In this document: positions 34,344-52,090 of the stretch, piece after piece
How the letters are laid out: each line of letters opens with the position of its first letter
How positions within the stretch are numbered: the first letter of the stretch is position 1
IMG/VR virus record: IMGVR_UViG_3300044620_001883
Coordinates: 96,001-160,000 of that record
Length of the DNA: 64,000 nt
Origin: a virus
Taxonomy: Duplodnaviria; Caudoviricetes
Reading direction: 5' to 3' (one strand)
Program-made: the position numbers and the translations under genes
The notes under the pieces: model-generated
Seen by the model: only the letters and a program-made list of their open reading frames with translations
Database searches by the model: none
What the model was told of the DNA's origin: nothing

Positions 34344-37049
34344 ATGTTGTCCCTGCTCGCCCCACCCATCGTCAAGTCCTCGAGTGCCCTCCCGGTTCTC
34401 GAACGGGCGGCAGGCAAGATCCAGGATGCCGTGGACCCTGCTCCGCTCGAGAAGGCCCCCGCGACGGCCCGTCCTGAATCCAAGAGGCACCGGGAGGCTT
34501 TGGTGGATGAAGCAAGGGTGCGGCACTACCAGGACCAACCTTTCAGTACATCTGCCATGCTAGGTGGTGGGCTCGGTTTGAGTGTGCCGTGGGTGCTGGC
34601 TGCCATCATGGCTCCCAAGATGTACCGGAATAATGCCGACATTGGTAGGCTGGCACAGCTCTCGGCAGCCGGTGGGCTAGTCGGGACCGGGACAGGTCTG
34701 GGTGCTGAAGCACTAGGACGCCTCTTGACCCGTGGGTTCGGTCCCAATTTCAAACCTTCGCAGTGGCACCGGGACCAGGATCCTCACCGCTGGAACAGTG
34801 CACTCCGGACTGCCCCCATCGCGGTGGCCACGCTGGGTGGTAAAGCACTGTCGACCATGTTTCGGGAGATGCACAAGGATGCCAGCAACGACCAGGATCT
34901 TCGGAGCCGTATCGCAGCTGCGTACAAGCAGGTCACAATCCCTGACCTGAAGGCCATCGAGCACGGTCAGTACCAGAAGGGTCACTTCTCCTGGAAGGGT
35001 CTCGGTATCACGATCGAGTCTGCCCCTGGTGCAGTGCGGCGTGGGGTCGATAAGGATGGGACGGAGTGGTCCGTGAAGCTCAAGAATGCCTACGGGTACA
35101 TCAAGGGCACCACCAGCGCAGAACCCGGTGACCAGATGGATGTCTTCATGGGTCCACATCCCGAGAGCGAGATCGTGTTTGTGGTGGACCAGAACAAGCA
35201 GAAGACCAAGACCTTCGATGAACACAAGTGCGTCGTAGGCTGCCGTACTGTTGCTGAAGCGAAGGAGCTGTACATCAAGAACTACTCGGAAGGCTGGACC
35301 GGCTTCCGGGACATCACACCCATGACGCTACCCCAGTTCAAGTCATGGCTAAAGAAAGGGGACATGACCAAGCCACTGGCCGGGCAGCAGTTCCAGGATT
35401 TCCACAAGCAGGCCACAAATTCGCTGGTCAACATTCTACCAAGCTCAGATATTTCCATCATGCACACTAGCCTCACACCCGCCCCCTGGACCAAGCAAGC
35501 CATCAATCTCAAGGGGGTCCTTCCTGCTCTCAAGGGCATGTTCAGCCGCACACCAGGTGCGGTCGGTGCGACTGAGGGGGCTACTGCAGCGCCGGCCGCG
35601 GAGAAGCTCCGAAGCTTCCTAGCTGGCGGAGGCAACCTGCGACCAGGGGAGTACGAGCGCGTTGCCCTGCAGCACCCGGAGCTCATGGCTGAGTTCCCTC
35701 GCATCCGTGATGCCGTGAATCTGGCTGACGTTCGGCGGATGATCGGCACTGGTCCTATTCCTGGCGCGTTTCAGGGGGGTGTTGGTAATCAGGTAGCACA
35801 GACGCTGATCGGTGGTGGAGCTGGTGCGGGGCTTGGTCTCGCTGAAAACAGTTTCACGGACATGGGACCGGACATGCAGAAGAACAACCTGATTGCCAAT
35901 ACGGCCTTAGGTCTGTTGGCAGGCAACCCAATCGCGCGGCAACGTATGCTCAAAAAGGTGTTCACGGATCCTGCTACTGGTCTCCGGAACATTGGGTACA
36001 ACCCGAAGGCCTTAATGGGTGCCAGTACAGGCCTCATCGGCAAGACATCCCTGCTGCTTGGTGGTGATAAACTGTTTGGTACTCTTGACAACCTGCGAGC
36101 CGGTACAGGCAAACTCACCAGCACCGCGACCAAGCTCGATTCCAAGATGGACAAGGCTGAGAACAGTATTGCCAAGAACTTCAAGGAGCCGTTCGAGAAG
36201 TTGGAGAATTCTTCCAAGGAGCTGGGCGGCAAGCTGATGGACTCAGGCTCTAAGTTGATTGCTGGAGGCCGCCCGTATGTTGGGGGCATTGGTGGTGCAT
36301 TCCTGGGCAATATGGTAGGCCAGTACTTCGAGGACGAGAAGCGGGTCTCTGCCGAGGAGGCCAAAAGACAGAAGCGCAATCGTATCCTGCTCACACTGCT
36401 CGGCGGCGCTGCAGGTGCAGGACTCGGATCGGCCGACCAGAACACTCTCCCGGATACGCTTCGCCGTCTCCAGGGTGGTTGGCAAACAGCAAAAGGTACG
36501 GCAGCAGATCTGTACAACAAGGTGACCAAGCAGGCCAATCTGGAGACTTCATTACCAGACGCTCTGAAACTGTTCGGCGTAAACTCCGAAGCCGCCACAC
36601 CAGATACTGTGGCGGCTCTCAAGGAACTTGCTGTACTTTCGCAAAGCTCAGATCCTAGAGCGGCTGTGCATGCAGCATGGGCTGTTCCCACAGTCGAACG
36701 TGCCGTTGCGATGCCGCTTGGCGGTGCCGCACTTGGTGGAGCCGCTGGTGGATTGATCCAGATGCTGCGCGGGCACGGTGTGCGCGATAAGAAACGTCGA
36801 CCTTCTGTTGGTGCTGGAGTTGGTTGGGGTGGGGTAGCAGGTGGGTTGCTTGGTGTCCTGGCTGCCGCCGACGCACCACGCCAGGGCTGGAATGCTTCCC
36901 CAATGGGGCGTGCCATTGGCACCGTGCCGCTATCAGATGGTTTGAGGACCTACTGGCGGATGCTGAGCGGTAACGGTGCCGACACCGCCATCGAAGATGC
37001 TTTGAACGCCGCTGCGATCAATAAATGGATACCGAAACTGGCGCCATGA
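34344..37049 (+). CDS. large virion-type polyprotein: glycine zippers plus inorganic pyrophosphatase (InPase) domain
   Basis: ~34950-35360 GHFSWKGLGITIE..PG.VRRG.DKDG.EW......YGYIKGT...GDQMDVFMG...VFVVDQ...FDEHK....A..LY..NY..GW matches the InPase domain of polyvalent proteins; several GGxxGxxxG segments; KDA/KQA motifs at boundaries. Confidence 0.85.
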   Translation: MLSLLAPPIVKSSSALPVLERAAGKIQDAVDPAPLEKAPATARPESKRHREALVDEARVRHYQDQPFSTSAMLGGGLGLSVPWVLAAIMAPKMYRNNADIGRLAQLSAAGGLVGTGTGLGAEALGRLLTRGFGPNFKPSQWHRDQDPHRWNSALRTAPIAVATLGGKALSTMFREMHKDASNDQDLRSRIAAAYKQVTIPDLKAIEHGQYQKGHFSWKGLGITIESAPGAVRRGVDKDGTEWSVKLKNAYGYIKGTTSAEPGDQMDVFMGPHPESEIVFVVDQNKQKTKTFDEHKCVVGCRTVAEAKELYIKNYSEGWTGFRDITPMTLPQFKSWLKKGDMTKPLAGQQFQDFHKQATNSLVNILPSSDISIMHTSLTPAPWTKQAINLKGVLPALKGMFSRTPGAVGATEGATAAPAAEKLRSFLAGGGNLRPGEYERVALQHPELMAEFPRIRDAVNLADVRRMIGTGPIPGAFQGGVGNQVAQTLIGGGAGAGLGLAENSFTDMGPDMQKNNLIANTALGLLAGNPIARQRMLKKVFTDPATGLRNIGYNPKALMGASTGLIGKTSLLLGGDKLFGTLDNLRAGTGKLTSTATKLDSKMDKAENSIAKNFKEPFEKLENSSKELGGKLMDSGSKLIAGGRPYVGGIGGAFLGNMVGQYFEDEKRVSAEEAKRQKRNRILLTLLGGAAGAGLGSADQNTLPDTLRRLQGGWQTAKGTAADLYNKVTKQANLETSLPDALKLFGVNSEAATPDTVAALKELAVLSQSSDPRAAVHAAWAVPTVERAVAMPLGGAALGGAAGGLIQMLRGHGVRDKKRRPSVGAGVGWGGVAGGLLGVLAAADAPRQGWNASPMGRAIGTVPLSDGLRTYWRMLSGNGADTAIEDALNAAAINKWIPKLAP

Positions 37050-37735
37050 GCAAAGTCTCACACATCAAGGTCTCAACAGCTCTTCTAGGTAAGGCACTAA
37101 ATGGAGTCTCGAAGGTCTTGACCCAAACAGGTAAGACGCTCCAGCAAGGCGCTCGCTTCGGGGCAGGAGTCCCGGCAGGTGAAACCTTCGCACCTTCGAT
37201 CGGTACTGCCGCGCGTCGTGTACTGAAGCTCGGTTTTAACCCGCAAGTCAAGGGTTGGTGGAACGTACCGAAGCGGATAGCACAAGGTGCGGGCGTCTAT
37301 GGTCTGGGTGCTAGTGTTGTGCAGGGTCGTGAAGCTGTCAAGGACTTGGCCCTGAATGCCAACCAATTGCTCCCACCGCATGAGAAACTTCAACCGTTGA
37401 AACAGTACACACAGGACCTGGCCGAGTCCCCAATCTGGACCACACTCAGGACAGCCATCATGGGTCTCCCCGAAACAGTTCCAGCTGGGCAGCGTGCGCT
37501 GCTCGGCAACGCTACTTACATTGCTGGTCGGAACGGGGTGGCTGACTGGTGGAACAATCTTGGTCGCGCTCCAGCGGCAACGGGCCCAGGGACTTGGCTT
37601 CGGCACGCCTATGCACCTGCTGTAGCACCTGCTGTCCAGGGTGTCCGAAGTGTACTGCCTAATATCCCACACGCGCCACCTAGCGCCTACGGGGATCTGT
37701 TCCGCTCTGCCCAGCAAGCTGTACGGGAATGGTAG
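37046..37735 (+). CDS. putative virion internal protein with HIKVSTALLGKA leader
   Basis: ATG 37046 overlaps upstream TGA; Gly/Ala-rich amphipathic. Confidence 0.7.
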   Translation: MSKVSHIKVSTALLGKALNGVSKVLTQTGKTLQQGARFGAGVPAGETFAPSIGTAARRVLKLGFNPQVKGWWNVPKRIAQGAGVYGLGASVVQGREAVKDLALNANQLLPPHEKLQPLKQYTQDLAESPIWTTLRTAIMGLPETVPAGQRALLGNATYIAGRNGVADWWNNLGRAPAATGPGTWLRHAYAPAVAPAVQGVRSVLPNIPHAPPSAYGDLFRSAQQAVREW

Positions 37736-39055: not shown

Positions 39056-40123
39056 ATGAGTCTAGCCCCCTGGTTCCACAAACAAGCTGGCGTTGGTGAG
39101 AGTGCCTTCAAGGCCCCCACTGCGGCGGCAGCCCCAGCGGCTTCAAATCCAGCGACGGCGCCGACGACACCAGCGGCGACACCGGGTGCAAGTAAACCCC
39201 CAGCAGCGACTCCTTTGGGTTCGGCTCCACCTCCGGCACCACAGGCTCCTTTGGGTGCGTTGCCCCCTTTACCCCCTCCCCCATTAGGTGCTGGTGCTCC
39301 ACTTCCTGACCCGTGGGGCGGTGGAACTCCAACCAGCACACCACCGCCGGCGGCACCTGTGGGTTCACTCCCGCCGTCAACCCTGGGAGCTGGAGACTCT
39401 GGAGGTACACCGTCACCTTCATATCCTGCTGCTTTGGGCGACCCAACCAAGACCACAATGCCGCCACCAGCCCCCGCCTTGGGGGGTGACACCTCATCTG
39501 TCCCGCCTGCCGCATCTCCTCCGGCTCCGGGTGGAACACCTCCACCCTCCCAGGTTCCTTCTGGTCACGAGTTTTCCACGATACCGGGCGCCCCAGGACC
39601 GGACGCCAAAACGGCATTTCCAGCAGACAGCCCGGAAGGGATCGCGGAACGAACTCGGCCTGGTGTCCTGCAGGATCGCGGCCTCGTCGCAGGTCCAACA
39701 GCTCCCCAGCAGATGGACCAACAACAGATGGACAACGCTGTTGGGAATTTGACAGCCGGAACTGGCTTCAACGGCAGTGCTACTTCCATGAAACCCGAGG
39801 ACGTGATGGCGCGCGCTACTGCCATCAATGACAAGTACCGGAAAGACAACCCAACGTTTGCAGCAGCCAACCCACATCCGGACGACCCGCGCAACAAGGT
39901 GGCCCACATCCAGGTCAGCACCCATATTCTCAAACGTGCGGCAGCAGTACCTTCCGTGGCTGCCGTGTCCTCCACCAAGCCTCCCGTGGGGCCGGTGATC
40001 CTGAACCCGAAGTTCCTGAGGGCTCTGCCCAAGCAGGCTCCAGCCAAACCCCCGGCGAAGCCAGCCAAGGATCCTGAACCCAAACCGGTTCCTGGTGCGG
40101 TCAAGAAAGCAGCTTGGTATTGA
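39056..40123 (+). CDS. Pro/Ala-rich low-complexity putative virion protein
   Basis: Leader MSLAPWFHKQA; long PAPP/GAPP tract; internal HIQVSTHILKRA; TTGACG-N18-CAACGT upstream. Confidence 0.75.
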   Translation: MSLAPWFHKQAGVGESAFKAPTAAAAPAASNPATAPTTPAATPGASKPPAATPLGSAPPPAPQAPLGALPPLPPPPLGAGAPLPDPWGGGTPTSTPPPAAPVGSLPPSTLGAGDSGGTPSPSYPAALGDPTKTTMPPPAPALGGDTSSVPPAASPPAPGGTPPPSQVPSGHEFSTIPGAPGPDAKTAFPADSPEGIAERTRPGVLQDRGLVAGPTAPQQMDQQQMDNAVGNLTAGTGFNGSATSMKPEDVMARATAINDKYRKDNPTFAAANPHPDDPRNKVAHIQVSTHILKRAAAVPSVAAVSSTKPPVGPVILNPKFLRALPKQAPAKPPAKPAKDPEPKPVPGAVKKAAWY

Positions 40124-40153
40124 CTAGTACTCGCAGGGCCGGGACATTCCAGT

Positions 40154-40474
40154 ATGCCTGACGCCTCCAAACCTCCCAGCTGGATTGCCATGATCGGTGG
40201 CACGGTCATGGGGTTGTTAACCGGCAGCCTGACCATGTACACGTGGTTGGAGCACCGTATCGAGAGTAGGGTCGAAGCAAAGGTCATGATCGAAGTCAGG
40301 ATCTCGGCTATTGAGGCTGCCCTGAAGACCAACAAGGATGCAGCCTGGCTCGCGGATGAGAACCTCGTGAAGCGACTCGATATCCAGCAGGAGCGAATTA
40401 CACAACTGGTCAGCAAGATCGATGGACTGCACGTGACCGTCACACCAAGCGCAAGTTCAACTACACCCCCATGA
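40154..40474 (+). CDS. TM plus coiled-coil protein (possible i-spanin / lysis accessory)
   Basis: One N-terminal TM then heptad-rich helix; TTGACT-N17-GACATT upstream. Confidence 0.5.
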   Translation: MPDASKPPSWIAMIGGTVMGLLTGSLTMYTWLEHRIESRVEAKVMIEVRISAIEAALKTNKDAAWLADENLVKRLDIQQERITQLVSKIDGLHVTVTPSASSTTPP

Positions 40475-41088
40475 TGTACAAACAGGCAGGACCAGTACAG
40501 TTGCTTGGCAAGTTGCTTGGGCGTGCAGCGCCTGCCGCGAAGGGGTTGGGGTCCTTCGAACGCTACCCTGCCTTGATGGCTGCGCGCCGCAAGACGATCG
40601 TGATCCCCAATGCTCGCGCCAGCTCGTTTCCAGGTCCTGACACTTGGGGCCAGTACCGTCCCAAGGATGACCTACTGCTAGTGCGCGGTGGGCTTTCGCC
40701 GACTGTAGCACGACAATCACTGCGGCACGAGCTTACCCACATGGCCCAAATCAAGGCACCACACACCTGGCTGGACAGAACTGTGCAGGCCGGCATATCT
40801 CAGCCGGGTAATAGCTTCAAGTCAGGCCTACGCAGCATCCTGGCTGAGTTCGGTGCCCGCACTGGAGAGACCAAAGGCCTGATGGCTCCTGTCAGAGGAG
40901 CATTGAAGTTGTGGGAGACCGCACCGTCCTATGCACGAGACTTCAAACGGTTGGGTGCCCGCGCGGCGGCCCTGCCGTACCAACTCCTGACTGCAGCCCC
41001 TATTGTCGGCGGACTGGCAACGGCAGGTGGTTTGGGTCTAAAGCTCAAGAGCCTGACGGACCAGCTCAACCAACCTAAGACACGATGA
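40471..41088 (+). CDS. zincin-like (HExxH) protein with KQA leader
   Basis: MMYKQA|G leader; GQYRPKDD.L.VR...LRHELTHMAQ (His codon 40726); C-terminal glycine zipper. Confidence 0.7.
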   Translation: MMYKQAGPVQLLGKLLGRAAPAAKGLGSFERYPALMAARRKTIVIPNARASSFPGPDTWGQYRPKDDLLLVRGGLSPTVARQSLRHELTHMAQIKAPHTWLDRTVQAGISQPGNSFKSGLRSILAEFGARTGETKGLMAPVRGALKLWETAPSYARDFKRLGARAAALPYQLLTAAPIVGGLATAGGLGLKLKSLTDQLNQPKTR

Positions 41089-41163
41089 AGCCAGAGGCAA
41101 AAACACTTCCGCACGGTTTCTGACAAAACTTGCAGAGTGTCCCGCTTGTTGCGACAGTTGAGG

Positions 41164-41781
41164 ATGGCAACGCCGTTTCAACTTCTCTCTCACGTCAAAC
41201 GCGCAGGCGCGACCCCTCCCCCACCGGAAGGTAAACAGTACGACCTGCCCGTTCCGATCCCTCCAACATCCAAGACGGACAAAACCGTAGCAGCCTTGCC
41301 GCCTGGTAAGCAGTACGCGTTGCCGGTTCCGCCAACCCCGCAAGCCCCTACGCTTGCATCACCCATCCTGACACGCTCAGGACAACCAGCTCCGGCAGGT
41401 TGGGCACCTCCCAAACAGGAACTCCCACCCGTGCCGGTTCCTGCGGAGGTGCGGCAGGGTCTACCATCATTCGGGCAGTGGTTACAGTCGCGCGCGGTCG
41501 ATCTGTCAACAATGTTGGTCCCGTACCAAGCGCAGATCAATCAGGTCTTCGGACACAAGCAAGCTTCCCACATCCGCGTCAGCTCGTACTTGCTCAAGCG
41601 CGCGACCCTCGGAGCAGCAAAGTCCGTAGCTGGACAGCAGCCGGGACTCGGAGGGCATTTGAAGCAAGCGCCTAAGATGTTCCAACCACCCGCTGCACCG
41701 ACCGCTGTGCAGCCGACCCAGCCAACAGCGCCTGACTTCAAGATCAAAGCTCCTGCCGGGATCGCGGCAGCACGAGGCTAA
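41164..41781 (+). CDS. Pro-rich putative virion protein
   Basis: Start placed at ATG 41164 (TTGCAG-N17-GACAGT upstream); leader ...HVKRA|G; duplicated GKQY.LPVP; internal HKQASHIRVSSYLLKRA. Confidence 0.7.
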   Translation: MATPFQLLSHVKRAGATPPPPEGKQYDLPVPIPPTSKTDKTVAALPPGKQYALPVPPTPQAPTLASPILTRSGQPAPAGWAPPKQELPPVPVPAEVRQGLPSFGQWLQSRAVDLSTMLVPYQAQINQVFGHKQASHIRVSSYLLKRATLGAAKSVAGQQPGLGGHLKQAPKMFQPPAAPTAVQPTQPTAPDFKIKAPAGIAAARG

Positions 41782-41784
41782 TTT

Positions 41785-42792
41785 ATGAAACCGACGCACA
41801 TCCAAGTCAGTTCATACATGGTGAAGCAGGGATTGGCTAGGTGGCGTACTGCAAAGGCGTTGGCGGCTTTCATGCGCCGCCCACCAACACCGGCAATAAC
41901 GTCTAATATACATCCACCCAAGTGGGGAGATCCGACCCGCCTGACTCAGCTGCAAATAGCCAAGTCACATATGAGCTCGAACCCTTACGCACCAGCGCAA
42001 GAGATGTCAGGGCTGCTGAAGCAGGTAAACAAATTGGACGACGTGACACCGCTAGAGACACTCGGCGCAAACATGCTTCAGAATAAGCAAACTCCGGGTT
42101 CACTGTTTCGTGGAATGAGAACCTTAACTCCCAACATTGAAGCAGGTAGCTGGGTCCATGGAACTCCGTCCCCTGCTCTGGCCGCCAAGTACGGACCGAA
42201 TCGTTCAGCTCCCGCGTTGGTTGCTGAATACCAGGCAAGCCCACTTAATCGCTACAGCGCTGACTTTTTACAGGACATGGACGTCACCAAGCAAATGGGG
42301 CGTACTTGGGACAGTGTTGTTTCCGCGCTGCGTCAACCACCGAATTTGCGTGGCGATGCATTCGGCTTAGCCCGCACGAACAAGAATTTATGGGCGCGCC
42401 ACCAACTCAAGCTAGCTGACCCAAGAGAGTTGGTGACCGGCAAGGGACTGGAGCCGGCTGACAGCTGGGTACCTTGGTATGAGACCAAACTACAATCGGG
42501 TATCAACAATTTCCGCAATTGGGCATTTGTACATGACGGTAAACTGCTTCGCGTACCGGCAAATAAACAATGGCAGCACATACTGCGTAATATCACGTCC
42601 CCTGTGTACAAGGGATCGTGGGCCTCACGTATCCCGCAGGGGATGGAGCAGTTTATGGGGCGGCAGGGTTTTGAGTCAAGATTAGGTAGTGAATGGTTTA
42701 GAATTCAGGAGTACTTGCGTGGTGGGGTGGAAAAATTGAAACAGTTGTTACCCGCCCGTACGCCCCATGGCGCTGCTGCTCCCATGAAGTAA
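41785..42792 (+). CDS. putative virion protein with possible ADP-ribosyltransferase-like domain
   Basis: Leader HIQVSSYMVKQG; LFRGM...WVHGTPSPALAAKYG...LVAEY resembles ART strand-1 R and strand-2 S/T..A..Y motifs. Confidence 0.5.
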   Translation: MKPTHIQVSSYMVKQGLARWRTAKALAAFMRRPPTPAITSNIHPPKWGDPTRLTQLQIAKSHMSSNPYAPAQEMSGLLKQVNKLDDVTPLETLGANMLQNKQTPGSLFRGMRTLTPNIEAGSWVHGTPSPALAAKYGPNRSAPALVAEYQASPLNRYSADFLQDMDVTKQMGRTWDSVVSALRQPPNLRGDAFGLARTNKNLWARHQLKLADPRELVTGKGLEPADSWVPWYETKLQSGINNFRNWAFVHDGKLLRVPANKQWQHILRNITSPVYKGSWASRIPQGMEQFMGRQGFESRLGSEWFRIQEYLRGGVEKLKQLLPARTPHGAAAPMK

Positions 42793-42794
42793 AC

Positions 42795-42823
42795 TTGCTC
42801 CCCGGTCACGTCCATGCCACACT
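42795..42823 (+). promoter_or_regulatory. sigma70-like promoter, leaderless geometry
   Basis: TTGCTC-N17-CACACT, 5 nt before ATG 42829. Confidence 0.5.
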
Positions 42824-42828
42824 AGGGT

Positions 42829-45800
42829 ATGGCCGACAAGACTAGACCAGATGTAATCGCCTTTGACCTTGATGGAACACTGGCCCTACGCCAGGAGCCC
42901 TTCAATCCGTACTCGGTAGGGGAACCCGTGGAGGCAATCTTGGACCTGGCCCTGAAGGCCATCCGGGATGGGAAGCGCACCTTGTGCTTCACGGCCCGCG
43001 CCAGTTCCAAGGATCCCAAGATGCACAGCACGGTGCGGAAGTGGCTCGATGATCACGGGTTAGAGAAGATGAAGATCACGAACATCAAGGATCCAACGAT
43101 AACCCGCTTCTACGATGACCGGGCCATCGGGGTCGTGCCAGACAAGGGCGAGCTTCTGACCAAGGTCGCGGCCGAGATGGTTCGGAAGACCAGGATGGTG
43201 GAAGTTCAGGATGACCACTGCCCACACTGTGACCACAAGTTTACCGAGAAGGGCTACCCGCGTCCTGACTTCGAACAGGCCGAGCGGGAAGGCATTGAGC
43301 CCATGGACGCTGACCAGCTGTGTCCCAACTGCCAAGGGATCGTGGATGACCCGGAGATGTCCGACGAGAGAATTGAGAACTACCAGGGCTTCGGCGGGGA
43401 ATCCATGAAGGAGATCCTGTACCAGCAGCGGGAGAAGAAGCGGGCTATCCTGGCTGCACGGCGGGCCAAGAAGGCCTCCACCTCGCCGGAGAACGTTTCC
43501 GTTCCAGGGCGAGGAGAGGAGAAGCAGGCCGCCGGGGACAAGCTCCGGAACCTGTGGGTACGTCGGGGTCAATGTCCCGAATGCGGTGGCAAGCCCAAGG
43601 ACTTCGAGTTCTTCAAGACCCACTCGAACGCGGAGTGTCGTGACTGCGGTCACAGCTTCGATGTCGATGCTGAACGTAAGAAGCAGGCTTCCTGGGACCA
43701 AGCCCAAGAGAAGTCCGCCTCAGTACAGATCGCAGGCCGTACTGGCCCGCATGGAATCCTGGAAGCCCTCAAGGCCCTGAACCTCGATGACCTCGAGAAG
43801 CAAGCCCGTGCTGACATTGCCTCCGGGAAGATCACCAAGCGTGACCGTGGGGTCAAGATGCTCAATGCCCTCGAAGGACTGCGCCGCAATGAGATCAAGC
43901 CCGAGGAGCTGATGATCAAGCGGGTGCCAGTGCTGCCACCGGCCTTCAGGCCCTTCTCGTTCCTGGGCACCACCTACATTCCCGGTGATGCCAACGAGCT
44001 CTACCAGGACCTCTTCAAGCACCGCGCCATCCATGACGAGACGCTCTCGACCCTGGGGGAAGGCGGCGCAGCCCTGACGCGCATGAATCTCCTGAATGCC
44101 ACGAGGGCCCTGTACGGTTACGGAGACCCCGTGTCCCCGAAGCTCAAGGAGCGTGGACCCTCGGGCTACTTGGACCAGATCCTCAACGAAGGGCCAAAGC
44201 ACTGCTACTCTGCAGACACAGAAATCCTGACGCGGGGTCAAGGGTGGGTGAAGTTCTCTGAACTGGAGCGTGGGGCGCAGGTGGCCACCATAAATCCCAA
44301 GACCCTGGCATTCGAATGGCAGACCCCTACGGAGTACATCGATTCAGAATACAGCGGTACCATGAAGCGGTTCGTAGTTGGTGGGCGTACAGGCAAGCGC
44401 ATGGACCTTTTGGTCACACCCAATCACCGGATGTGGACCAAAAAGCGCGACAAGAAGAATAAGATGACGGACGACAATTTGCGCACTGGTTGGTATGCGA
44501 TGCGGGCCGACGAGTTGGTCGCGCACAAAGTACGTCACTTCGCTATGGTGGGCGCAGGTGGTTGGGAGGGCTCGGTCGAACTGCCAGAGTGTGCACGCCA
44601 CTGGCCCGCTGAACTGTTTGCACGTTTTATCGGTTGGTACATTTCAGAAGGAAGCACACACGAATGTGGTACGATCGCTACAATCTGGCAGACCGAAGCA
44701 AACCCCGATTACTGCTTGGAACTAGACGCTTTGTTCCGAGACATCAGCAATGTACAAGAGGTGTCCAAAGTGAACATGCACCGGGAGGAGCCTCGCTTCA
44801 GCGGTTACGGTTGGAGCATCAAGGGATGTAGACCGTTGGTTGCATGGTTGGAACAGCATTGCGGCAAAGGTTCCAATTTCAAGCGCATACCTGCTCTAGC
44901 ACGTGATTGGAATCAGACCCTGTTGGGGTTGCTGTTCGACACCTACCTGAAGGGGGATGGCGCTAAGCGCGTTCCATGGCAGAAGCGTGCAAACGCGTCC
45001 GACAACTACCGGTTCCGTGATGCTCTTACAGATTCACATCATGCTTTCATTACCACAAGTCCAAAGCTGTTCGATGACCTGATGGAAGTAGGCTTCAAAC
45101 TTGGTATTTGTATCCGCCGTAGAAAAGAGCACCCGCATCTGTATCCAGAGCACCATGCTGAGAAGTACAATGGTGTGCTCATTGGGCGCTGGTTCGTTCA
45201 AACCGAGTCGAACGGGACAGTTCAGGATGTGCAGTACAACGGTCACATTTATTGTGTCGCTGTACCTAACGGGCTGCTTGTGGTGCGCCGCAACGGTGCC
45301 GCCGTCGTCAGTGGTAACTCCTTCGTTCAACGCCGGCTCCTTTCCAAGCCCATCGACAACGTGGGCCGCAGTGTCATCACGGTCGATCCAGACCTGGGCC
45401 TCGATGAAGTCTCGATCCCCCGTGAGATGGCCTGGACGCTCGCCGGTTCCAAGGTACAGCGGCGGCTGGCCATGATGGGCATGAGTCCCGCCCAGACCAT
45501 CAAAGCCGTGAAGGACCGTGACGCCTTTGCCAGCCGCACCCTGGAGCTTGAGCTGAAGGACACACCCTTCATCCTTTCCCGCGCTCCAGCCTGGCACAAG
45601 TTCAACGCCGTCGGGCAGTATGCCCGGATCCACGACGGTCCGCACATTGCCATCAACCCCTATATCACGGCCGGTCAGAACGCCGACTTCGACGGGGACC
45701 AGATCAACGTCTCCCTGCCGGTCCTGCCAGAATCCATCAAGGAGACCAAGGAGAAGTTGATGGCCAGCAAGATGCTGTTCTCCATCAAGAACCAGGACGA

Positions 45801-45960
45801 CGTGGTCCCGGTGCCTAAGCATGAGCAAATTTTAGGCATCTGGAATGCCAACAAACGTCCGCCTACGAAGCTGCACAGCTTCGCTTCAGGACAGGAAGCG
45901 CTTGCGGGTATGCAGAGCGGCGCTGTAAAGTTGGAGGACGACATTGAAATTCCGGACTAG
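42829..45960 (+). CDS. rpoC: multisubunit RNA polymerase beta' N-terminal/catalytic half with N-terminal HAD and two Zn-ribbon modules, intein-containing
   Basis: VPVLPPAFRP, DANELY, RRLLSKPIDNVGRSVITVDP, RAPAWHK, catalytic NADFDGD (45679-45699); ends at KLEDDIEIPD; N-terminal AFDLDGTLA...FYDDRA (HAD); CPHC..CPNC and CPECG..CRDCG. Confidence 0.93.
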   Translation: MADKTRPDVIAFDLDGTLALRQEPFNPYSVGEPVEAILDLALKAIRDGKRTLCFTARASSKDPKMHSTVRKWLDDHGLEKMKITNIKDPTITRFYDDRAIGVVPDKGELLTKVAAEMVRKTRMVEVQDDHCPHCDHKFTEKGYPRPDFEQAEREGIEPMDADQLCPNCQGIVDDPEMSDERIENYQGFGGESMKEILYQQREKKRAILAARRAKKASTSPENVSVPGRGEEKQAAGDKLRNLWVRRGQCPECGGKPKDFEFFKTHSNAECRDCGHSFDVDAERKKQASWDQAQEKSASVQIAGRTGPHGILEALKALNLDDLEKQARADIASGKITKRDRGVKMLNALEGLRRNEIKPEELMIKRVPVLPPAFRPFSFLGTTYIPGDANELYQDLFKHRAIHDETLSTLGEGGAALTRMNLLNATRALYGYGDPVSPKLKERGPSGYLDQILNEGPKHCYSADTEILTRGQGWVKFSELERGAQVATINPKTLAFEWQTPTEYIDSEYSGTMKRFVVGGRTGKRMDLLVTPNHRMWTKKRDKKNKMTDDNLRTGWYAMRADELVAHKVRHFAMVGAGGWEGSVELPECARHWPAELFARFIGWYISEGSTHECGTIATIWQTEANPDYCLELDALFRDISNVQEVSKVNMHREEPRFSGYGWSIKGCRPLVAWLEQHCGKGSNFKRIPALARDWNQTLLGLLFDTYLKGDGAKRVPWQKRANASDNYRFRDALTDSHHAFITTSPKLFDDLMEVGFKLGICIRRRKEHPHLYPEHHAEKYNGVLIGRWFVQTESNGTVQDVQYNGHIYCVAVPNGLLVVRRNGAAVVSGNSFVQRRLLSKPIDNVGRSVITVDPDLGLDEVSIPREMAWTLAGSKVQRRLAMMGMSPAQTIKAVKDRDAFASRTLELELKDTPFILSRAPAWHKFNAVGQYARIHDGPHIAINPYITAGQNADFDGDQINVSLPVLPESIKETKEKLMASKMLFSIKNQDDVVPVPKHEQILGIWNANKRPPTKLHSFASGQEALAGMQSGAVKLEDDIEIPD
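44203..45318 (+). mobile_element. intein (372 aa) with LAGLIDADG homing endonuclease
   Basis: Starts CYSADTEIL, block B LLVTPNHRMW, ARFIGWYISEGS and DTYLKGDG, ends YCVAVPNG.LVVRRNG..VVSGN then Ser+1; removal restores GPKH-SFVQRRLLSK. Confidence 0.93.
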
Positions 45961-45969
45961 CCTGACCCC

Positions 45970-47970
45970 ATGACCTTTTTACCACGTACATTACTGAAGC
46001 TTGCCACTGTCGACAACACGGCAAGCTATGATCCGGCTAAGGGAATGCCAAGTCCTGTGGTGACACCAGGCACGGATGATCCCAATGAGATCGTCACAAG
46101 ACTGCCCGCTCCTGCGCCGACGACAACGACAACCACCACGCCAACTACCACCGCAACCACCACGCCAACCACCACGCCAACTACCACCGCACCAAACAAC
46201 GGTGCTCCCACTTCGGCTCCGGTTGGCAACGCCGCTTTTGCAGGTAATGCTGGCACACGTCCCAACGTCTCCACTTGGGAGCCGGGCAACGGAGGTCTGG
46301 CAGTTCCGGTTGGCGACCCTGCGGATTTCAAGGCCATGTCGCGACCAGATCTCGCGAATTTTTACAAAGGCTGGGGTGGGCGGGCCTACACGGACCGTGC
46401 GCCAGGAACAGTGGGCACACCAGTTCAGCAAATGGGCAGTGCGGATCTGTACAGCCCGACACCAGGGAATCCTGGAGGGACACATGTCAGCGCCACTATT
46501 GATCCAGAGAGTTCCCTTCGTAAAGGTGGGGATCCCAACAAGCGTGTCCTGAACTCCCAGTACGGAACTGGGAGTGTGACATTCAACAATCCCTCAAACT
46601 GGGCCACGGCCCCAGACCGCAAGACCGTCATTGATGGTAAGACCTACACAGGCCCCAATGCCTTCCGTGACCATCTGGAACCGATCGTGGCGAAGCAGCA
46701 GGAGGCGGCCAAGACACAAGCTGTCGCGGAGGTCGACAAGGCCAACCCTGGGTACTTGTTCAAAGGACCTGCAATGGCAGACCCACGTGGACCGGCCTAT
46801 CCGGATGTGCCAAACCTGCGTAACCAAACCATGGCGGGTTCCCGTATTGGAGATTCGCCTTATCAGTCCCTCACGGATCCAGATCGCGTGAACCCCGCGA
46901 TCGGCATCTCGGAAGGACGCCAACAGTACATCAATGATCTTGGTTCTTTGAACCTACCCGCGCGTGTGCCTGCTCCACAGCAGTTGTTGGCTGGAGGCAA
47001 ACCTGGAGGCAAACCTGGAGGCCAGCCCGCCGCAGAGCCCTATACGTCAATGCCTGTGAATCCGCAGTTCAAGGTTCCTAGTACCTTTGATCCATCTCGG
47101 AATACATTTATTTCATCAAACAGGCCAGGTAGTTATGATCCAGCATTAGCGGCGATGCGGGAAGGCGACCCGTTTGGTGCGAACGTCCATGGACAGCCTT
47201 CGCATTCAGGGAGAAAGCTGACAGGATTTGAATCAGACGCGGCGGCCACCAAGGACTGGGCAGCGAATCCAGTAGAGCCGAAGCTTCTGAAGAAACAGAG
47301 TAATACTGTTTCTCCTTTGGATGATCCGAATTCCTTGCTTAACCTGGACACGTCGGGACCGCTGATTCGGGAGCTTCCGGCCAAGCCTGCATCACCAGTA
47401 GCTGCGGCCAAGCCTGCATCACCCCCAGCCGTTGTCACTCCAAAGCCTGCTGCTCCAGCAACACCGAAGGTAGATGATTCACTCGGATGGGAAGCCGCTA
47501 CGCCGCCCCCAAATGCTTCAGCTCCCAAGCTAAAACCAAGTGACAGCGGTACACTCGGTTGGGAGTCTGGCCCTATGCCTCCCACACAAGGACAGCAGGA
47601 TGCGGCGAACATATTGAGGAACCAAGGTAACACGGAATTCCGTCTCCTCAACAACTGGCCAGGGAGTGATTGGGATCACCTGAAGAAGCAATTCCCAGAA
47701 GTGAAACCTGAGCAGTACAGGACAACAAATGCGCTCATTGATGCTTATCGAGCAGTCCTGCCGCCAGTCAAATCTGGTGCCCTCCACTTCGCGCTCCAGT
47801 GTTCCAAGTTCGCCAGTGCGATCATGCACACCCCCACCGGCCTTGAACCTCAGGGTGGGCTCGCAAAGCCGAAGATCAAGATGCCAATTGGCCCGGGGCG
47901 TCCGCAGGTCGCATTCGAGCACGCCGCCCCCGCCAAGCCCTCCATAACCCCTCTCACTCCTGCCTCATGA
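45970..47970 (+). CDS. Pro/Thr/Gly-rich low-complexity putative virion protein
   Basis: Leader MTFLPRTLLKLA; poly-Thr tract, GGKP and AKPASP repeats; KQS and KFA motifs near C-terminus. Confidence 0.75.
   Translation: MTFLPRTLLKLATVDNTASYDPAKGMPSPVVTPGTDDPNEIVTRLPAPAPTTTTTTTPTTTATTTPTTTPTTTAPNNGAPTSAPVGNAAFAGNAGTRPNVSTWEPGNGGLAVPVGDPADFKAMSRPDLANFYKGWGGRAYTDRAPGTVGTPVQQMGSADLYSPTPGNPGGTHVSATIDPESSLRKGGDPNKRVLNSQYGTGSVTFNNPSNWATAPDRKTVIDGKTYTGPNAFRDHLEPIVAKQQEAAKTQAVAEVDKANPGYLFKGPAMADPRGPAYPDVPNLRNQTMAGSRIGDSPYQSLTDPDRVNPAIGISEGRQQYINDLGSLNLPARVPAPQQLLAGGKPGGKPGGQPAAEPYTSMPVNPQFKVPSTFDPSRNTFISSNRPGSYDPALAAMREGDPFGANVHGQPSHSGRKLTGFESDAAATKDWAANPVEPKLLKKQSNTVSPLDDPNSLLNLDTSGPLIRELPAKPASPVAAAKPASPPAVVTPKPAAPATPKVDDSLGWEAATPPPNASAPKLKPSDSGTLGWESGPMPPTQGQQDAANILRNQGNTEFRLLNNWPGSDWDHLKKQFPEVKPEQYRTTNALIDAYRAVLPPVKSGALHFALQCSKFASAIMHTPTGLEPQGGLAKPKIKMPIGPGRPQVAFEHAAPAKPSITPLTPAS
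46115..46195 (+). repeat. coding Thr-rich tandem repeat
   Basis: acgacaacgacaaccaccacgccaactaccacc... encoding TTTTTTPTTTATTTPTTTPTTT. Confidence 0.75.
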
Positions 47971-48599
47971 CAACACCCGCTCAACTTGCTGCTGACTTCC
48001 GTCAGCTTTCCCAGAAGCTCGCCTTCATTGGTGGACCACCTCAGCAAGGTGCCGCGCCTCCACCACAAGGGGCACCACCTCCAGGTGATCCGTCTCAGCA
48101 GGGTGCCCCGCCTCCCCAGGGCGCACCACCTCCCCAAGGCGCCCCGCCGCCACCTCAAGGTGATCCGTCCCAGCAGGGCGCCCCGCCTCCCCAGGGTGAT
48201 CCGTCCCAGCAGGGTGTTGATCCCATGCAGTTGCTGCAGCAGCTTCAGCAGCAGGTTGGTGAGATGCTGCAGGGCATCGAGCAGCTGGCGCAGACGGCGC
48301 AGCAACAGCAGCAGATGTTCGAGGCCCTGGCGCAGAAGACGCAGGCCTTCGAGCAGAAATCAATGCAGCAGGAAATGCAGCTCAAGGCGATGCAGAAGGC
48401 CATCGACGACTCGTCGAAGGTCATGCCCGACATGCTGCAGGATATGCAGCAGCAGCTCGCCCAACAGGAGCAGGCCCACCAGAAGGCCCTCATGCAGCAG
48501 CAGCTGTCCCAGCAGGCACTTGAGCAGCAGCTCCAACCGATGCTCCAACAAGCTGACCCAGCCTCGCAGCACATGATGGCGCAGGCAGGCGTGCAATAA
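47967..48599 (+). CDS. PQG-repeat / Gln-rich coiled-coil protein
   Basis: Leader ...RQLSQKLA|F; QQGAPPP and QGDPSQQG repeats, Gln-rich helix. Confidence 0.75.
   Translation: MTTPAQLAADFRQLSQKLAFIGGPPQQGAAPPPQGAPPPGDPSQQGAPPPQGAPPPQGAPPPPQGDPSQQGAPPPQGDPSQQGVDPMQLLQQLQQQVGEMLQGIEQLAQTAQQQQQMFEALAQKTQAFEQKSMQQEMQLKAMQKAIDDSSKVMPDMLQDMQQQLAQQEQAHQKALMQQQLSQQALEQQLQPMLQQADPASQHMMAQAGVQ
48040..48215 (+). repeat. coding PQG tandem repeats
   Basis: Recurrent cagcaggg(t/c)gccccgcctccccaggg and ggtgatccgtc(c/t)cagcaggg units. Confidence 0.75.
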
Positions 48600-48611
48600 A
48601 CCACAGCCCAC

Positions 48612-48881
48612 ATGATTCGCCTTCGCTCTCTCACTGACGGTACAGTGGTACTGGTCCCAACCTCTTGTGCAGTCGAGGTGCTGGACCAGGAAGGCGCTGT
48701 CGCGTTGCTGCTCCTGCCGGATCTTGGCAAGCACTCCCTGAAGCTCGTGACCCTCACGGAAGAGCCGACGGTGGCCCAGAACTATTCGAAGACCTTTGGT
48801 GTGCCGTTCAGCCAGGTGGTGGTGCCCGACCTGTCTGCGTTAAGCGGCGAAGCCCCGCCACCCCAACCCTTTAAGTCCTGA
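48612..48881 (+). CDS. hypothetical protein
   Basis: ORF in late block. Confidence 0.6.
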   Translation: MIRLRSLTDGTVVLVPTSCAVEVLDQEGAVALLLLPDLGKHSLKLVTLTEEPTVAQNYSKTFGVPFSQVVVPDLSALSGEAPPPQPFKS

Positions 48882-48884
48882 CCT

Positions 48885-49736
48885 ATGTTCCAATCCGGAG
48901 TCGAAACCATCCCCAATAGCGCCACTGAACTGGAGGTGATCTTCCCGGTCGCGTTCGCGGTGGACCCGGACACAATTATCGCCGTGGTGCGCAACACTTC
49001 GGCGGACTCCCCCAAGTACATCATCCAGGCCAGCATCACTGAGCAAAGCGCCACAGCCTTCACGGTCAGTCTCGACGCCGCAACCAGCTCCGGGAACTAC
49101 GAGCTGGTCTGGTTGGCTGGCAGCGCGGCCTCGATTCTCGACACCATGAGTGTGCTGGCAGGGCGCAAGCTCACCAGCTATGGGGAACTTGCGAGTCTCA
49201 CCAACGCCGAGTTCAAGATGCCGCTCTTGGATGTGTCGGGCATCCCTGCTCTCAAACTGGTGGACGCCGCCACGTTCTGGAGCGCCGTGGCGCAGCGAGC
49301 CTCCGCGGTCCCAGCCAGCCCTCTGGCCAACATCACCACCGCGATGGCCATGACGGTCCATGAAGGTTGGTTGTACATTTCAGCACAAGACCGCTGGGTC
49401 AGGCTGCCCGTGGATGACTCTCTAAATTGGACGACCCAACCTTTTTATGTTCCCTTCCGGGAGCGGGAGATTTCCTTCGTGGAGGCAACTCCAGGTGCGG
49501 ATGAGATCCTGGTCGTCGCTGACCAGTTGGTGTACACGATTGAATTCGACACACCCTTTGAAGCCGGCAACGCCCCCAAGGTGTTGCTGCAGTTGATTGA
49601 TCTGAATGGTGTGGCAGTCTCGCAGTACACCGCGCAGGTTACCCGGCGTGACCTTGAGGGTTTTGATGTCACGTTCTCGGCCCCGATCCAGAACTACACG
49701 CTCCAGCTGTACTACATGGCCCGCCAACTTCCTTGA
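48885..49736 (+). CDS. tail/fibre accessory protein with two H-lectin/gp53-like beta domains
   Basis: EVIFPVAF..DP..I....ITEQSATAFTV and IEFDTPF....PKV....VTRRDLEGFDV. Confidence 0.6.
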   Translation: MFQSGVETIPNSATELEVIFPVAFAVDPDTIIAVVRNTSADSPKYIIQASITEQSATAFTVSLDAATSSGNYELVWLAGSAASILDTMSVLAGRKLTSYGELASLTNAEFKMPLLDVSGIPALKLVDAATFWSAVAQRASAVPASPLANITTAMAMTVHEGWLYISAQDRWVRLPVDDSLNWTTQPFYVPFREREISFVEATPGADEILVVADQLVYTIEFDTPFEAGNAPKVLLQLIDLNGVAVSQYTAQVTRRDLEGFDVTFSAPIQNYTLQLYYMARQLP

Positions 49737-49741
49737 TTCAC

Positions 49742-52090
49742 ATGAAACACATCCTCACAGCCCTCCTACTCCTGACCGCCACCTTGGCGGCCCAGACCTC
49801 CACGCTCGTGATCAGCAATGGCAAGTTGGCTACAGATCTTGATGCCAACACGAAGTCGATCCTGAATGCAGGTAAGATTGGACTTGGTGGTACTGGCACC
49901 CTGGATTCAGCCCTGCATTTCCTACCTGGTGGTGCACCAACGACCAACGCCTATGGGATCAAGTGGGGCGACACTGGCGCCGTCTTGTACCAGAGTGCTA
50001 CCGGCACTGTGACGCTCACGGGCAACCTGGTGGTCAGCGGCACCATCCAAGCCTCAACTGGGATTGTGGACCTCGCGGGCACCAACAGTTTCACTGGGGC
50101 CAACAGTTTTGCAGCAGCCACGACGGTTGCGGACCTGATCCTCTCGGGAACCTTCTCGGTCGCGAATGACACAGTCCGGGACAACGTCAGAGCTGCAGCA
50201 GAACTTGTCCCCGGCACAGATGTCCAAGAGTACAGCGCAAAGCTTGCGGACATCCACAACCTGACCCCGGCAGACAGTGCATTCCTGGTCGGTAATGGTA
50301 CGACGTGGGTAGCCGAGACAACCTCGACGGCTCGCACCTCTCTAGGTCTTGGTACCGCTGACAGCCCCACCTTCACGAACCAGACCCTCACAGGCAACCT
50401 GTCCGTCACGGGCGTCTCAACCCTGACGGGACGGGTCACCGCCAGTGGTGGGATTCAATTTGCAGCCGGGGGAACCTGGGCGGCTTCTGGATCTGGAACG
50501 ATCACGAATGACCCGTTGGTACTTGGGAGCACGCTGGCTGTCACGGGCGCCACGACCCTCACAGGGGTTGTGACGTTGGGCGCAGGGGGGCTTACCCTGA
50601 CTTCCAGCGGCACCACCGCCACACTGGCAGGAAAGCTGGTTGCCACTTCCCTGGAGTTGAGCACAACTCCCCTGGCCATCGCATACGGGGGACTGGGAAT
50701 TTCCAGTGCTGCCGATGGAACCTTCCCGGTTAGCAACGGTACGAACTACGTAGCCACGACTGTGACCCCGTTTGCGCTCACGATCCTAGACGACACGACG
50801 GATGCTGCAGTACGCGCCACTCTGGGGCTTTCAACCGCTGGAGGCGACCTGACGGGCACGTACCCGAATCCAACCCTGGCGGCCAATTCCGTCGCGCTCG
50901 GGACAGACACGACAGGCAACTATGTACTTTCCTTGGCTGACTCCGGCGCTGGAGCCTTTACGATCACCAATGGAGCAACGGAGGGCGGCGCCGCGACAAT
51001 CGCGCTGGCCAACAACGGTGTCACGCTGAACACGCACACGGCGGGTGACTATGTCGCCACCGTGACGGCGGGGACTGGGGTCACGATCGCAGGCGCAGGC
51101 ACGGAGGGCAGGGCTGCCACGATCAGCATCGGGCAAGATGTCGCAACAAGCGCATCCCCCACTTTCACAGGGCTCACGGTCACAACCCTGACGACTACAA
51201 ACCTGGTGCTGTCTTCCGGACGCGTTATGACGACCGAGTTCGCAACGAACGCCGTCGGGGTCGCGTCTTCAATCTGGGGCGGCAGCGCCGGCAACGCGCT
51301 CGTCTATGAAGGCGCCACGGCGGATTCGGATGAGACATCCTTGACTGCTGTGGACCCAACCGCCGACAATGAGGTGCGTCTTCCGGATGGGAGCGGCACT
51401 TTGATGCTCTCGCTGCTGACCGACAACGCGCCCAACAAGACCGGCGCGGTCTGGACGAATACCGACGCGGTCGTCTACGAGGGCACCACCGCCGACGGCA
51501 TCACGCTATCCTTGGTATCACCCGATCCTGTGACGTCGAGCAAGACCGTCACGTTGCCGAACGCCACCACAACCTTGGTGGGCCGTGACACTACCGACAC
51601 GCTGACGAACAAGACCCTGACGTCCCCTATCTTGACCACGCCCCTTATGGCGGACACGGGTGACACGACAAAGCGGATGACGACAAACCTCTCCGGCGCC
51701 ACGACGGCCAAGACCCGCACCATTGTCAGCAGCCACACAGACAACCGCAGCAATACCATCCCGGACGTGGCTGGAACATTCGAGATAGCCCAGACCACAA
51801 CCACCGTGGCACTCATCGCCGACGATCAAGTTGTGACACCGGGCGCCGTCACACGCATTGCTCTGACGAGCGACGACGCCGTGGCCGCCAATCGTACTTT
51901 CACACTGAGCACCACCGGCGCCGTCACAGGTTCCATTTACTGTCTGCTAGGTCCTCCGACTGACGCTTGCGTTCTTGAGGATACAGGCATTCAAGTGCTG
52001 TCTGCTGACTGGACACCAGGGCCTGATGACACGCTGATGCTTTGGTTTGACGGCACCAACTTCTACGAGGTTGGACGATCCGCCAATTAA
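49742..52090 (+). CDS. long Thr/Gly-rich fibre/adhesin-like protein with signal-peptide-like N-terminus
   Basis: MKHILTALLLLTATLAA|Q; fibre-type repeats (ARTSLGLGTADSPTF, GGDLTGTYPNPT, QDVATSASPTF, TLVGRDTTDTLTNKTLTSP); C-terminal L.FDGTNFYEV.RS. Confidence 0.8.
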   Translation: MKHILTALLLLTATLAAQTSTLVISNGKLATDLDANTKSILNAGKIGLGGTGTLDSALHFLPGGAPTTNAYGIKWGDTGAVLYQSATGTVTLTGNLVVSGTIQASTGIVDLAGTNSFTGANSFAAATTVADLILSGTFSVANDTVRDNVRAAAELVPGTDVQEYSAKLADIHNLTPADSAFLVGNGTTWVAETTSTARTSLGLGTADSPTFTNQTLTGNLSVTGVSTLTGRVTASGGIQFAAGGTWAASGSGTITNDPLVLGSTLAVTGATTLTGVVTLGAGGLTLTSSGTTATLAGKLVATSLELSTTPLAIAYGGLGISSAADGTFPVSNGTNYVATTVTPFALTILDDTTDAAVRATLGLSTAGGDLTGTYPNPTLAANSVALGTDTTGNYVLSLADSGAGAFTITNGATEGGAATIALANNGVTLNTHTAGDYVATVTAGTGVTIAGAGTEGRAATISIGQDVATSASPTFTGLTVTTLTTTNLVLSSGRVMTTEFATNAVGVASSIWGGSAGNALVYEGATADSDETSLTAVDPTADNEVRLPDGSGTLMLSLLTDNAPNKTGAVWTNTDAVVYEGTTADGITLSLVSPDPVTSSKTVTLPNATTTLVGRDTTDTLTNKTLTSPILTTPLMADTGDTTKRMTTNLSGATTAKTRTIVSSHTDNRSNTIPDVAGTFEIAQTTTTVALIADDQVVTPGAVTRIALTSDDAVAANRTFTLSTTGAVTGSIYCLLGPPTDACVLEDTGIQVLSADWTPGPDDTLMLWFDGTNFYEVGRSAN

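Follow-up and report, generated by a model that had tools for sequence, protein, structure and literature searches.

The question raised by one open reading frame (ORF) of virus record IMGVR_UViG_3300044620_001883 is how an RNA polymerase (RNAP) catalytic subunit that lacks its normal N-terminus, and carries a phosphatase domain and two zinc (Zn) ribbons instead, is made and used. The window, namely the whole stretch of 64,000 nucleotides that was analyzed, comprises bases 96001-160000 of this 200,255-bp record (58% G+C; completeness estimate, 98%). Judged by its sequence matches, the ORF encodes the N-terminal catalytic half of a bacterial-type multisubunit RNAP beta' subunit, and its parts follow one another in the order HAD phosphatase, KVA, Zn-ribbon 1, KKA and KQA, Zn-ribbon 2, KQA and KSA, and beta' from approximately E. 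coli residue 178. We propose that the product is a precursor polyprotein, that its passengers are released by a prohead protease at the lysine-any residue-alanine (K-x-A) sites, and that the polymerase and the freed enzymes are ejected; we assign this reading a probability of roughly 0.6. A polyprotein had already been put forward from the letters of the sequence, and every part of that interpretation that sequence can test was borne out: the passengers vary, the junction is kept, the genome encodes a candidate gp21-like protease, and the motif recurs in the capsid and protease proteins.

Translation of 42829-45960 revealed all the elements that had been listed for the locus, namely the HAD domain, the two Zn-ribbons, the K-x-A sites, and the beta' start. 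DLDGT occupies residues 13-17, YDDRA residues 95-99, CPHC residues 131-134, CPNC residues 165-168, CPEC residues 249-252, and CRDC residues 270-273, and GPHGILEALKAL begins at residue 305. The beta' start had been placed at about E. coli residue 190, and this holds: residues 303-396 align to E. coli beta' 178-273 and match other PDB beta' chains with E values down to 3e-10. The lid and clamp-helix region is, by this alignment, collinear with cellular beta'. Position 44202, previously taken as the end, is the last base before an intein, and the ORF continues through the intein to the NADFDGD barrel; after intein splicing, the beta' module would be the C-terminal 374 amino acids of the precursor. 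The ORF is the sole match to Rpb1_2 in the genome. An artefact of frameshifting or assembly that joined separate genes was rejected because more than 20 independent metagenomic homologues share the continuous HAD-Zn-beta' frame. A megablast search of positions 40000-50000 against phage records gave no match, a PDB sequence search with residues 1-300 gave none either, and the closest cultured relatives are approximately 30% identical at the protein level.

The first line of evidence is the variability of the passengers. Homologues were collected by a word-indexed search and an exhaustive HMMER search (approximately 190 proteins; 148 representatives at E <= 1e-30). They share the beta' module at 42-97% identity, and in 182 homologues this module starts anywhere from target residue 2 to residue 1468. 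Thirty-five homologues are essentially unextended, with a Met 1-33 residues ahead of a conserved TGP; in one of them, inspected in its contig, this start proved to be that of the gene itself, with the beta piece 3.2 kb upstream. Relatives without passengers have the Met of their beta' gene 1-11 residues ahead of the TGP, which coincides with the N-terminus predicted from cleavage between KSA and Ser. In 103 extensions, Pfam identified InPase (15), NUDIX (12), HAD_PNKP (11, taken at E <= 1e-3), beta (Rpb2_6; 9), 2H (4), and GNAT (3) domains, together with rarer passengers that include LysM, SET, Acb1, and lysozyme. The passengers therefore differ between homologues while the K-x-A junction is kept, which is the opposite of the fixed set of N-terminal domains that the sequence-only reading had named as evidence against itself.

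Close relatives place the exchange points at the motif. The 748-amino-acid homologue P0002 shares 92% identity with the precursor in residues 1-114 and 95% from residue 214 onward; between them, Zn-ribbon 1 is exchanged for 174 unrelated amino acids, with breakpoints exactly at the K-x-A of residues 112-114 and the K-K-A-S at residue 214. HAD and Zn-ribbon 1 are also found on InPase proteins that have no polymerase part, and each module is bracketed there by K-x-A-[AS]. One such protein, P0067, begins at the Met of the MVRK that comes after the site in the Zn-ribbon 1 cassette. Pfam returned no reliable family for the P0002 replacement cassette or for the inserts of relatives in which beta and beta' are fused (beta::beta').

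The second line of evidence is the motif itself. Of 128 extended homologues, 96 have K-x-[AG]-[SAGT] within the 30 amino acids upstream of the TGP, usually at a distance of 5-17 residues, compared with 10% of equally long background windows from the same proteins. When the junction windows were de-replicated to less than 40% identity, 76 of 102 contained the motif; only K (P3), A (P1), and S or A (P1') are conserved across the 102 junctions, with a weak preference for Glu at P4. The ratio of observed to expected motifs, relative to shuffled sequences, was 2.2 in the extensions and 0.5 in the beta' core. The precursor contains five K-x-A-[S/A] sites in residues 1-300, where shuffles predict 0.53 (P = 5e-5), and none in its 366-amino-acid beta' core or its intein. 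A sixth K-x-A (KRA, residues 204-206), followed by Ile within a confident helix, departs from the junction pattern, as does KQA at residues 324-326 within the beta' core. A K-x-A directly follows the HAD module in nearly all homologues, and sites 2 and 3 are kept in close homologues. In the AlphaFold2 model, the five sites fall at dips in confidence or at helix ends between folded modules, and residues 221-232, in the spacer between sites 2 and 3, score below 50 in the predicted local distance difference test (pLDDT). Fused relatives behave similarly: the motif is in 0/8 contiguous beta::beta' fusions and in 10/11 fusions with an insert of at least 20 amino acids, including inserts of 20-34 amino acids that contain little else. 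The junction reads K-Q-A-S in the cultured Vibrio phage D69 and K-E-A-E in Salmonella phage Arash, approximately 10 residues ahead of the beta' module.

The same domains could instead be permanent parts of a multidomain subunit, in which the HAD and Zn-ribbons stay on beta' as lineage-specific surface insertions that act on RNA ends, nucleoside triphosphates, or pyrophosphate during transcription and K-x-A reflects linker composition. The break or insertion point in beta' lies at approximately E. coli residues 135-178, and the query aligns to Thermus beta' 449-550; the passengers thus enter where Thermus has a large, nonconserved, lineage-specific domain. The extra domains are internal inserts in the fused beta::beta' relatives, many passengers (InPase, NUDIX, HAD, and 2H) act on nucleotide or RNA phosphates, as would suit a cotranscriptional role, and in Bacillus jumbo phages an RNAP beta piece is joined to an HD phosphohydrolase (PMC7824862). 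However, linker composition fits poorly with junctions that are otherwise unrelated and yet conserve K, A, and a small P1' residue, with a motif that is depleted in the core, absent from contiguous fusions, and present in bare inserts, or with its occurrence on both sides of a protease domain and at a capsid N-terminus. Lysozyme, LysM, SET, GNAT, and Acb1 passengers, moreover, have no obvious polymerase role. We consider a fixed subunit unlikely.

A candidate for the protease that would cut the precursor was found in the head module. Sequence searches of the genome for the prohead protease families PF04586 and PF03420 (S78/S77) and the HK97 capsid family PF05065 yielded no match, and Pfam and PHROG scans of the candidate head genes were empty. 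By combining an ESM Atlas lead, fold prediction, and Foldseek, we located a 498-amino-acid protein, the gene of which (genome 169892-171490) lies near the capsid gene and immediately precedes a scaffold-like gene rich in K-x-A. The top three PDB matches of its AlphaFold2 model (pLDDT 84) are T4 gp21 (5jbl; probability, 1.0; template modeling score, 0.58), with herpesvirus proteases lower in the list. A phmmer search of Arash head proteins against the proteome matched the protease only. The predicted structure thus identifies this protein as a T4 gp21-like prohead protease. Its homologues contain K-x-A-[AS] at residue 42 (35/40), residue 237 (37/40), and residue 274 (27/40); these sites flank the catalytic domain, as expected for a self-trimming protease. 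The annotated Arash capsid protein has its homologue here in the major capsid protein (genome 173857-174828; E = 1e-17), and K-x-A-[SAG] occupies one alignment column at approximately residue 33 in 34 sequences, Arash included, down to 25% identity. In the longest-ORF call, the capsid gene is masked by a longer antisense ORF (173866-174933, minus strand), and automatic annotation could miss it.

Virion packaging bears on where cutting would occur. Mass spectrometry of purified Arash virions placed the RNAP proteins gp206 and gp216 among the most abundant components (PMC10585845), and by analogy the polymerase of the present phage is probably packaged. The K-x-A sites may alternatively be cut by a host protease or another phage protease in the cytoplasm, or after ejection, in which case the polymerase need not be a virion component. 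Packaging is known only in Arash, at approximately 32% identity, and Iyer et al. consider postinjection processing of polyvalent proteins (PMC5512222). The genome also has a single RNAP set (one match to Rpb1_2 and one to Rpb2_6), and the same enzyme is therefore also needed late in infection, when it must act outside capsids. Against this, the motif is concentrated in proteins of the head module (scaffold-like proteins, protease, and capsid), Pfam and PHROG scans identified no other peptidase domain in the precursor or the neighboring genes, and the precursor gene is embedded among cargo and structural genes that include tail-fiber proteins (Pfam and PHROG). Cutting elsewhere than in the head is, on balance, quite improbable.

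The sequence of events that we propose, with release in the head, would be as follows. The intein would first be spliced out of the precursor, which would then assemble with the other RNAP pieces and enter the prohead. The gp21-like protease would cut after K-x-A, thereby freeing the cassettes (HAD, 12.8 kDa; Zn-ribbon 1, 11.9 kDa; Zn-ribbon 2, 6.1 kDa) and exposing Ser298 as the first residue of a 41-kDa beta' fragment, and DNA ejection would finally carry the polymerase and the freed enzymes along. In a broader and more tentative form, to which we give somewhat less than even odds, the packaged RNAP may serve, across a large phage clade that is mostly uncultured, as an address label for swappable ejected effectors, which would be attached between K-x-A sites at one permissive point of beta' (E. 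coli ~135-178), carried along into the prohead, and freed by a gp21-like protease with a hitherto undescribed specificity for K-x-A followed by S or A; the beta and beta' parts of the fused forms would be separated likewise.

Several observations weigh against this proposal. We infer the cleavage, its scissile bond, and the protease responsible, and likewise that cutting takes place in the head, that the products reach the host, and what the phosphatase acts on. K-x-A-[SAGT] also occurs within folded cores, three times in the C-terminal beta piece and three times in the C-terminal half of beta'; the motif alone is therefore insufficient for cutting, and structural context must matter. Sites 214, 285, and 295 are in or at the ends of helices predicted by AlphaFold2, not in coil. 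The 30-amino-acid window lacks the motif in 25% of the extended homologues, although several have one slightly further upstream, and the Arash junction has Glu after K-E-A. The flanks of the capsid K-x-A column are conserved too, and conservation of the motif there could be structural. Coverage of Arash gp206 was 100%, which fits a cut and an uncut protein alike (PMC10585845), and packaging in the present phage is an extrapolation because Arash is only approximately 32% identical.

The remaining polymerase pieces account for the part of beta' that the precursor lacks. Arash gp206 (1525 amino acids) is collinear with four genes here, namely three that carry beta pieces and the precursor ORF from residue 302. 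The C-terminal half of beta' is encoded separately (genome 159844-162834, window 63844 onward; 996 amino acids; Pfam RNA_pol_Rpb1_5, E = 3e-11), and Arash gp216 matches this gene (Rpb1 domain 5 and a second intein). The N-terminal clamp segment and the zinc-binding domain are absent from the precursor ORF. The sequence-only reading had expected the missing N-terminus elsewhere, possibly fused to beta, and it was traced to the C-terminus of a beta fragment (genome 79110-81203, upstream of the window). Over its final ~110 residues, this C-terminal piece matches only extreme beta' N-termini (residues ~8-50); 29 of the 30 PDB matches listed are beta' N-termini, with E values from 0.02, and the region also matches Pfam Rpb1_1 positions 6-51. 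On these sequence matches, residues ~8-50 of beta', without the zinc-binding domain, are fused to beta. No Cys cluster lies between GGLFDP and WGYIDLP of the beta piece, where the canonical zinc-binding domain would presumably be found, judged by the E. coli sequence.

These findings bear on whether the two Zn-ribbons are a displaced substitute for the lost zinc-binding domain that is kept in the working enzyme, with the HAD alone as cargo. The beta' N-terminal segment on the beta fragment is devoid of that domain, and the ribbons directly precede the beta' module. Many relatives, however, have both an unextended beta' and a beta piece without a zinc-binding domain, so their enzyme works without any ribbon. 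A relative with 95% identity has another cassette in place of Zn-ribbon 1, which is also present on proteins other than RNAP, and two K-x-A-S sites separate Zn-ribbon 2 from beta'. On these grounds, the ribbons were rejected as the beta' zinc-binding domain, and we regard the substitute as very improbable.

The HAD module had been described as a polynucleotide-phosphatase-like enzyme, and its structural neighbors agree. Residues 9-105 were modeled with a pLDDT of approximately 97 (AlphaFold2, built on 27 homologues), and the model indicates that residues 1-111 adopt a cap-less Rossmannoid HAD fold. The best solved Foldseek matches are the small Bacteroides HAD 2obb and the T4 Pnkp 3'-phosphatase (2ia5 and 5uj0), all with probability 1.0; the T4 enzyme is 24-27% identical across ~100 residues. 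D13, D15, T55, K87, and D96 are invariant in the 27 homologues, and D97 is kept in at least 90% of them. A PHROG polynucleotide kinase matches the region (E = 4e-6), and Pfam HAD_PNKP falls below its gathering cut-off (16.4 bits versus 27.6). The module shares the cap-less fold and the DxDxT nucleophile motif with T4 Pnkp but has no kinase domain, which T4 Pnkp has. Because the closest solved relative is the T4 Pnkp 3'-phosphatase, our best guess for the substrate, made by analogy, is a nucleic-acid 3'-phosphate or a nucleotide. A partnership in RNA repair was dropped as unsupported: searches of the genome for the RNA ligase families PF09414 and PF09511 found no ligase partner, although one search was uninformative (its controls were unmatched).

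Four known systems resemble this locus. Polyvalent proteins are multi-enzyme phage polypeptides for which packaging, injection, and processing into separate units are proposed (Iyer, Burroughs, Anand, de Souza, and Aravind 2017, PMC5512222), and they have been described on N4-type single-subunit RNAP, MuF, and portal chassis with embedded metallopeptidases (PMC5512222). Like them, the precursor has several unrelated effectors per polypeptide, an architecture that varies between relatives, and an InPase, 2H, NUDIX, GNAT, and lysozyme repertoire, and for both, packaging, injection, and proteolytic release are predicted. At least two unrelated effector domains are, by sequence, shuffled between relatives, as in polyvalent proteins. 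The precursor differs in that its chassis is a multisubunit beta' fragment, that an embedded metallopeptidase domain, frequent but not universal in polyvalent proteins, was not found, and that a prohead protease is predicted to release the units by recognizing a short K-x-A code. The precursor is thus a variant of phage polyvalent cargo proteins on the chassis of a multisubunit RNAP subunit, and a new one; in the literature searched, we found no description of a beta' subunit with exchangeable cargo cassettes or of a K-x-A maturation code. One passenger domain of the P0019 beta' precursor matches Pfam Acb1, an anti-CBASS (cyclic oligonucleotide-based antiphage signaling system) phosphodiesterase, which suggests that anti-defense enzymes are among the cargo. 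Window positions 34344-37049 encode a further polyvalent cargo protein, separate from the precursor and drawn from the same domain pool as the beta' passengers; it has 901 amino acids, an InPase domain (Pfam E = 3e-46), and PHROG matches to minor head and DarB-like proteins.

The virion RNAPs of the jumbo phages phiKZ, SPN3US, and AR9 have beta and beta' split over several genes and are packaged in the head and ejected for early transcription (PMC7598289, PMC7824862). The split genes are shared with the present phage, which, in contrast, has one RNAP set rather than two, an enzyme much closer to bacterial beta and beta', and relatives with fused beta::beta'; the break in its beta' falls at E. 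coli ~135/178 and leaves the initial ~50 beta' residues on beta, and the phage carries variable passenger cassettes. In head maturation, T4 gp21 cuts after L/I-x-E and SPN3US gp245 after A-x-E (PMC10052503), and the gp245 cleavages, besides self-cleavage, remove N-terminal propeptides (PMC10052503). A gp21- or assemblin-like protease fold, multi-site propeptides, and a motif that recurs in the capsid, scaffold-like, internal, and protease proteins are common to these systems and the present phage, whereas the motif predicted here is K-x-A followed by S or A, with no Glu at P1, and what would be cut is a polyprotein of several enzymes, the polymerase catalytic subunit among them. Arash (gp206 and gp216) and Vibrio phages D69, D148, and D181 belong to the same RNAP lineage and share the capsid and protease motifs. 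Arash gp206 is a beta::beta' fusion, the last ~385 amino acids of which match the beta' module of the precursor; the polymerases of these phages are fused rather than split, are ~30% identical, and have no HAD or Zn passengers and no intein. Arash gp206 and D69 VPHD69_0261 also contain K-x-A-S at residues 3-6, which gives a 5-residue leader. The motif occurs three times in the 1527 residues of VPHD69_0261, with leader and junction accounting for two, and four times in the 1525 residues of gp206.

If the proposal is correct, this would be the first cellular-type RNAP catalytic subunit made as a polyprotein with unrelated enzymes and released by capsid maturation. It would also assign a simple code, K-x-A with Ser or Ala next, to a gp21-like protease, known relatives of which cut after Glu. 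The permissive beta' site, at which the chain is split and which takes inserts of up to ~480 residues in fused forms and, in split forms, allows as many as 1,470 residues before the module, may be useful for polymerase engineering and for loading foreign proteins into phage heads. The passengers form a catalogue of enzymes that are apparently worth delivering at infection: InPase, NUDIX, HAD, 2H, Acb1-like, GNAT, SET, and lysozyme. The coordinates of the precursor and its parts are listed in Table 1.

Table 1. Precursor ORF and its parts, in window positions.
Feature	Position	Strand	Details
Whole precursor ORF	42829..45960	+	1043 amino acids; passengers, N-terminal catalytic half of bacterial-type RNAP beta' (by sequence), and intein; Pfam RNA_pol_Rpb1_2, 62 bits (cut-off 25.3)
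HAD phosphatase module, cap-less, PNKP-phosphatase-like	42829..43161	+	residues 1-111; motif I D13-x-D15, II T55, III K87, IV D96-D97
Predicted cleavage site 1	43162..43170	+	K112-V-A114, then A115; pLDDT dip to 61; left edge of P0002 cassette swap
Zn-ribbon module 1	43171..43467	+	residues 115-213; Cys131, 134, 165, 168; mobile cassette, on non-RNAP InPase proteins too
Predicted cleavage sites 2 and 3	43468..43530	+	K214-K-A216, then S; K232-Q-A234, then A; flank 15-amino-acid disordered spacer
Zn-ribbon module 2	43531..43680	+	residues 235-284; Cys249, 252, 270, 273; weak Zn-ribbon Pfam matches only
Predicted cleavage sites 4 and 5	43681..43719	+	K285-Q-A287, then S; K295-S-A297, then S; site 5 would give mature N-terminus SVQIAGRTGP
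beta' module part 1	43720..44202	+	residues 298-458; E. coli beta' ~178 onward; VPVLPP lid region, clamp helices; PDB beta' alignment
Intein with LAGLIDADG homing endonuclease	44203..45318	+	residues 459-830, 372 amino acids; Cys1, TPNH block B, C-terminal Gly-Asn, +1 Ser831
beta' module part 2	45319..45957	+	residues 831-1043; double-psi beta-barrel; NADFDGD at 951-957 (nucleotides 45679-45699)

Related motifs were observed in neighboring genes. A 666-amino-acid orphan directly 3' of the beta' gene (window 45970-47970) matches nothing in Pfam or PHROG; its first 12 residues form a leader that ends in K-L-A followed by T, and three K-P-A-[SA] repeats lie at residues 472-495. HI-x-VS followed by K-x-[AG] occurs in four neighbor proteins (41785-42792, 37025-37735, 39056-40123, and 41137-41781). 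An HI-x-VS tag on the beta' precursor was rejected; it is absent there and from the other polymerase pieces.

The 372-amino-acid insert is, judged by its sequence, a class 1 LAGLIDADG intein. C459, TPNH, N830, and S831 are present, the intein-free homologues P0002 and P0003 read GPKH directly followed by SF across the insertion site, and there are matches to mycobacteriophage inteins. Gly829 stands in the penultimate position, where inteins usually have His, and the match to Pfam Hint_2 is below the cut-off (18 bits versus 28); for both reasons, the intein is put forward only as presumably competent for splicing. Related inteins (36-49% identity) occupy the same beta' site in 10 homologues, most homologues have no intein, and other beta' homologues seem to carry inteins at a second site deeper in the barrel. 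The gene of the C-terminal beta' half has its own intein of ~380 amino acids with a LAGLIDADG_3 domain; both beta' genes of the phage are therefore intein-interrupted. Approximately 12 prohead-protease relatives (P0226, P0230, P0239, P0261, P0265, and others) are ~900 amino acids long; precomputed Pfam annotation gives Hint or LAGLIDADG domains for the majority, which suggests that inteins in this clade also target the gene for the prohead protease.

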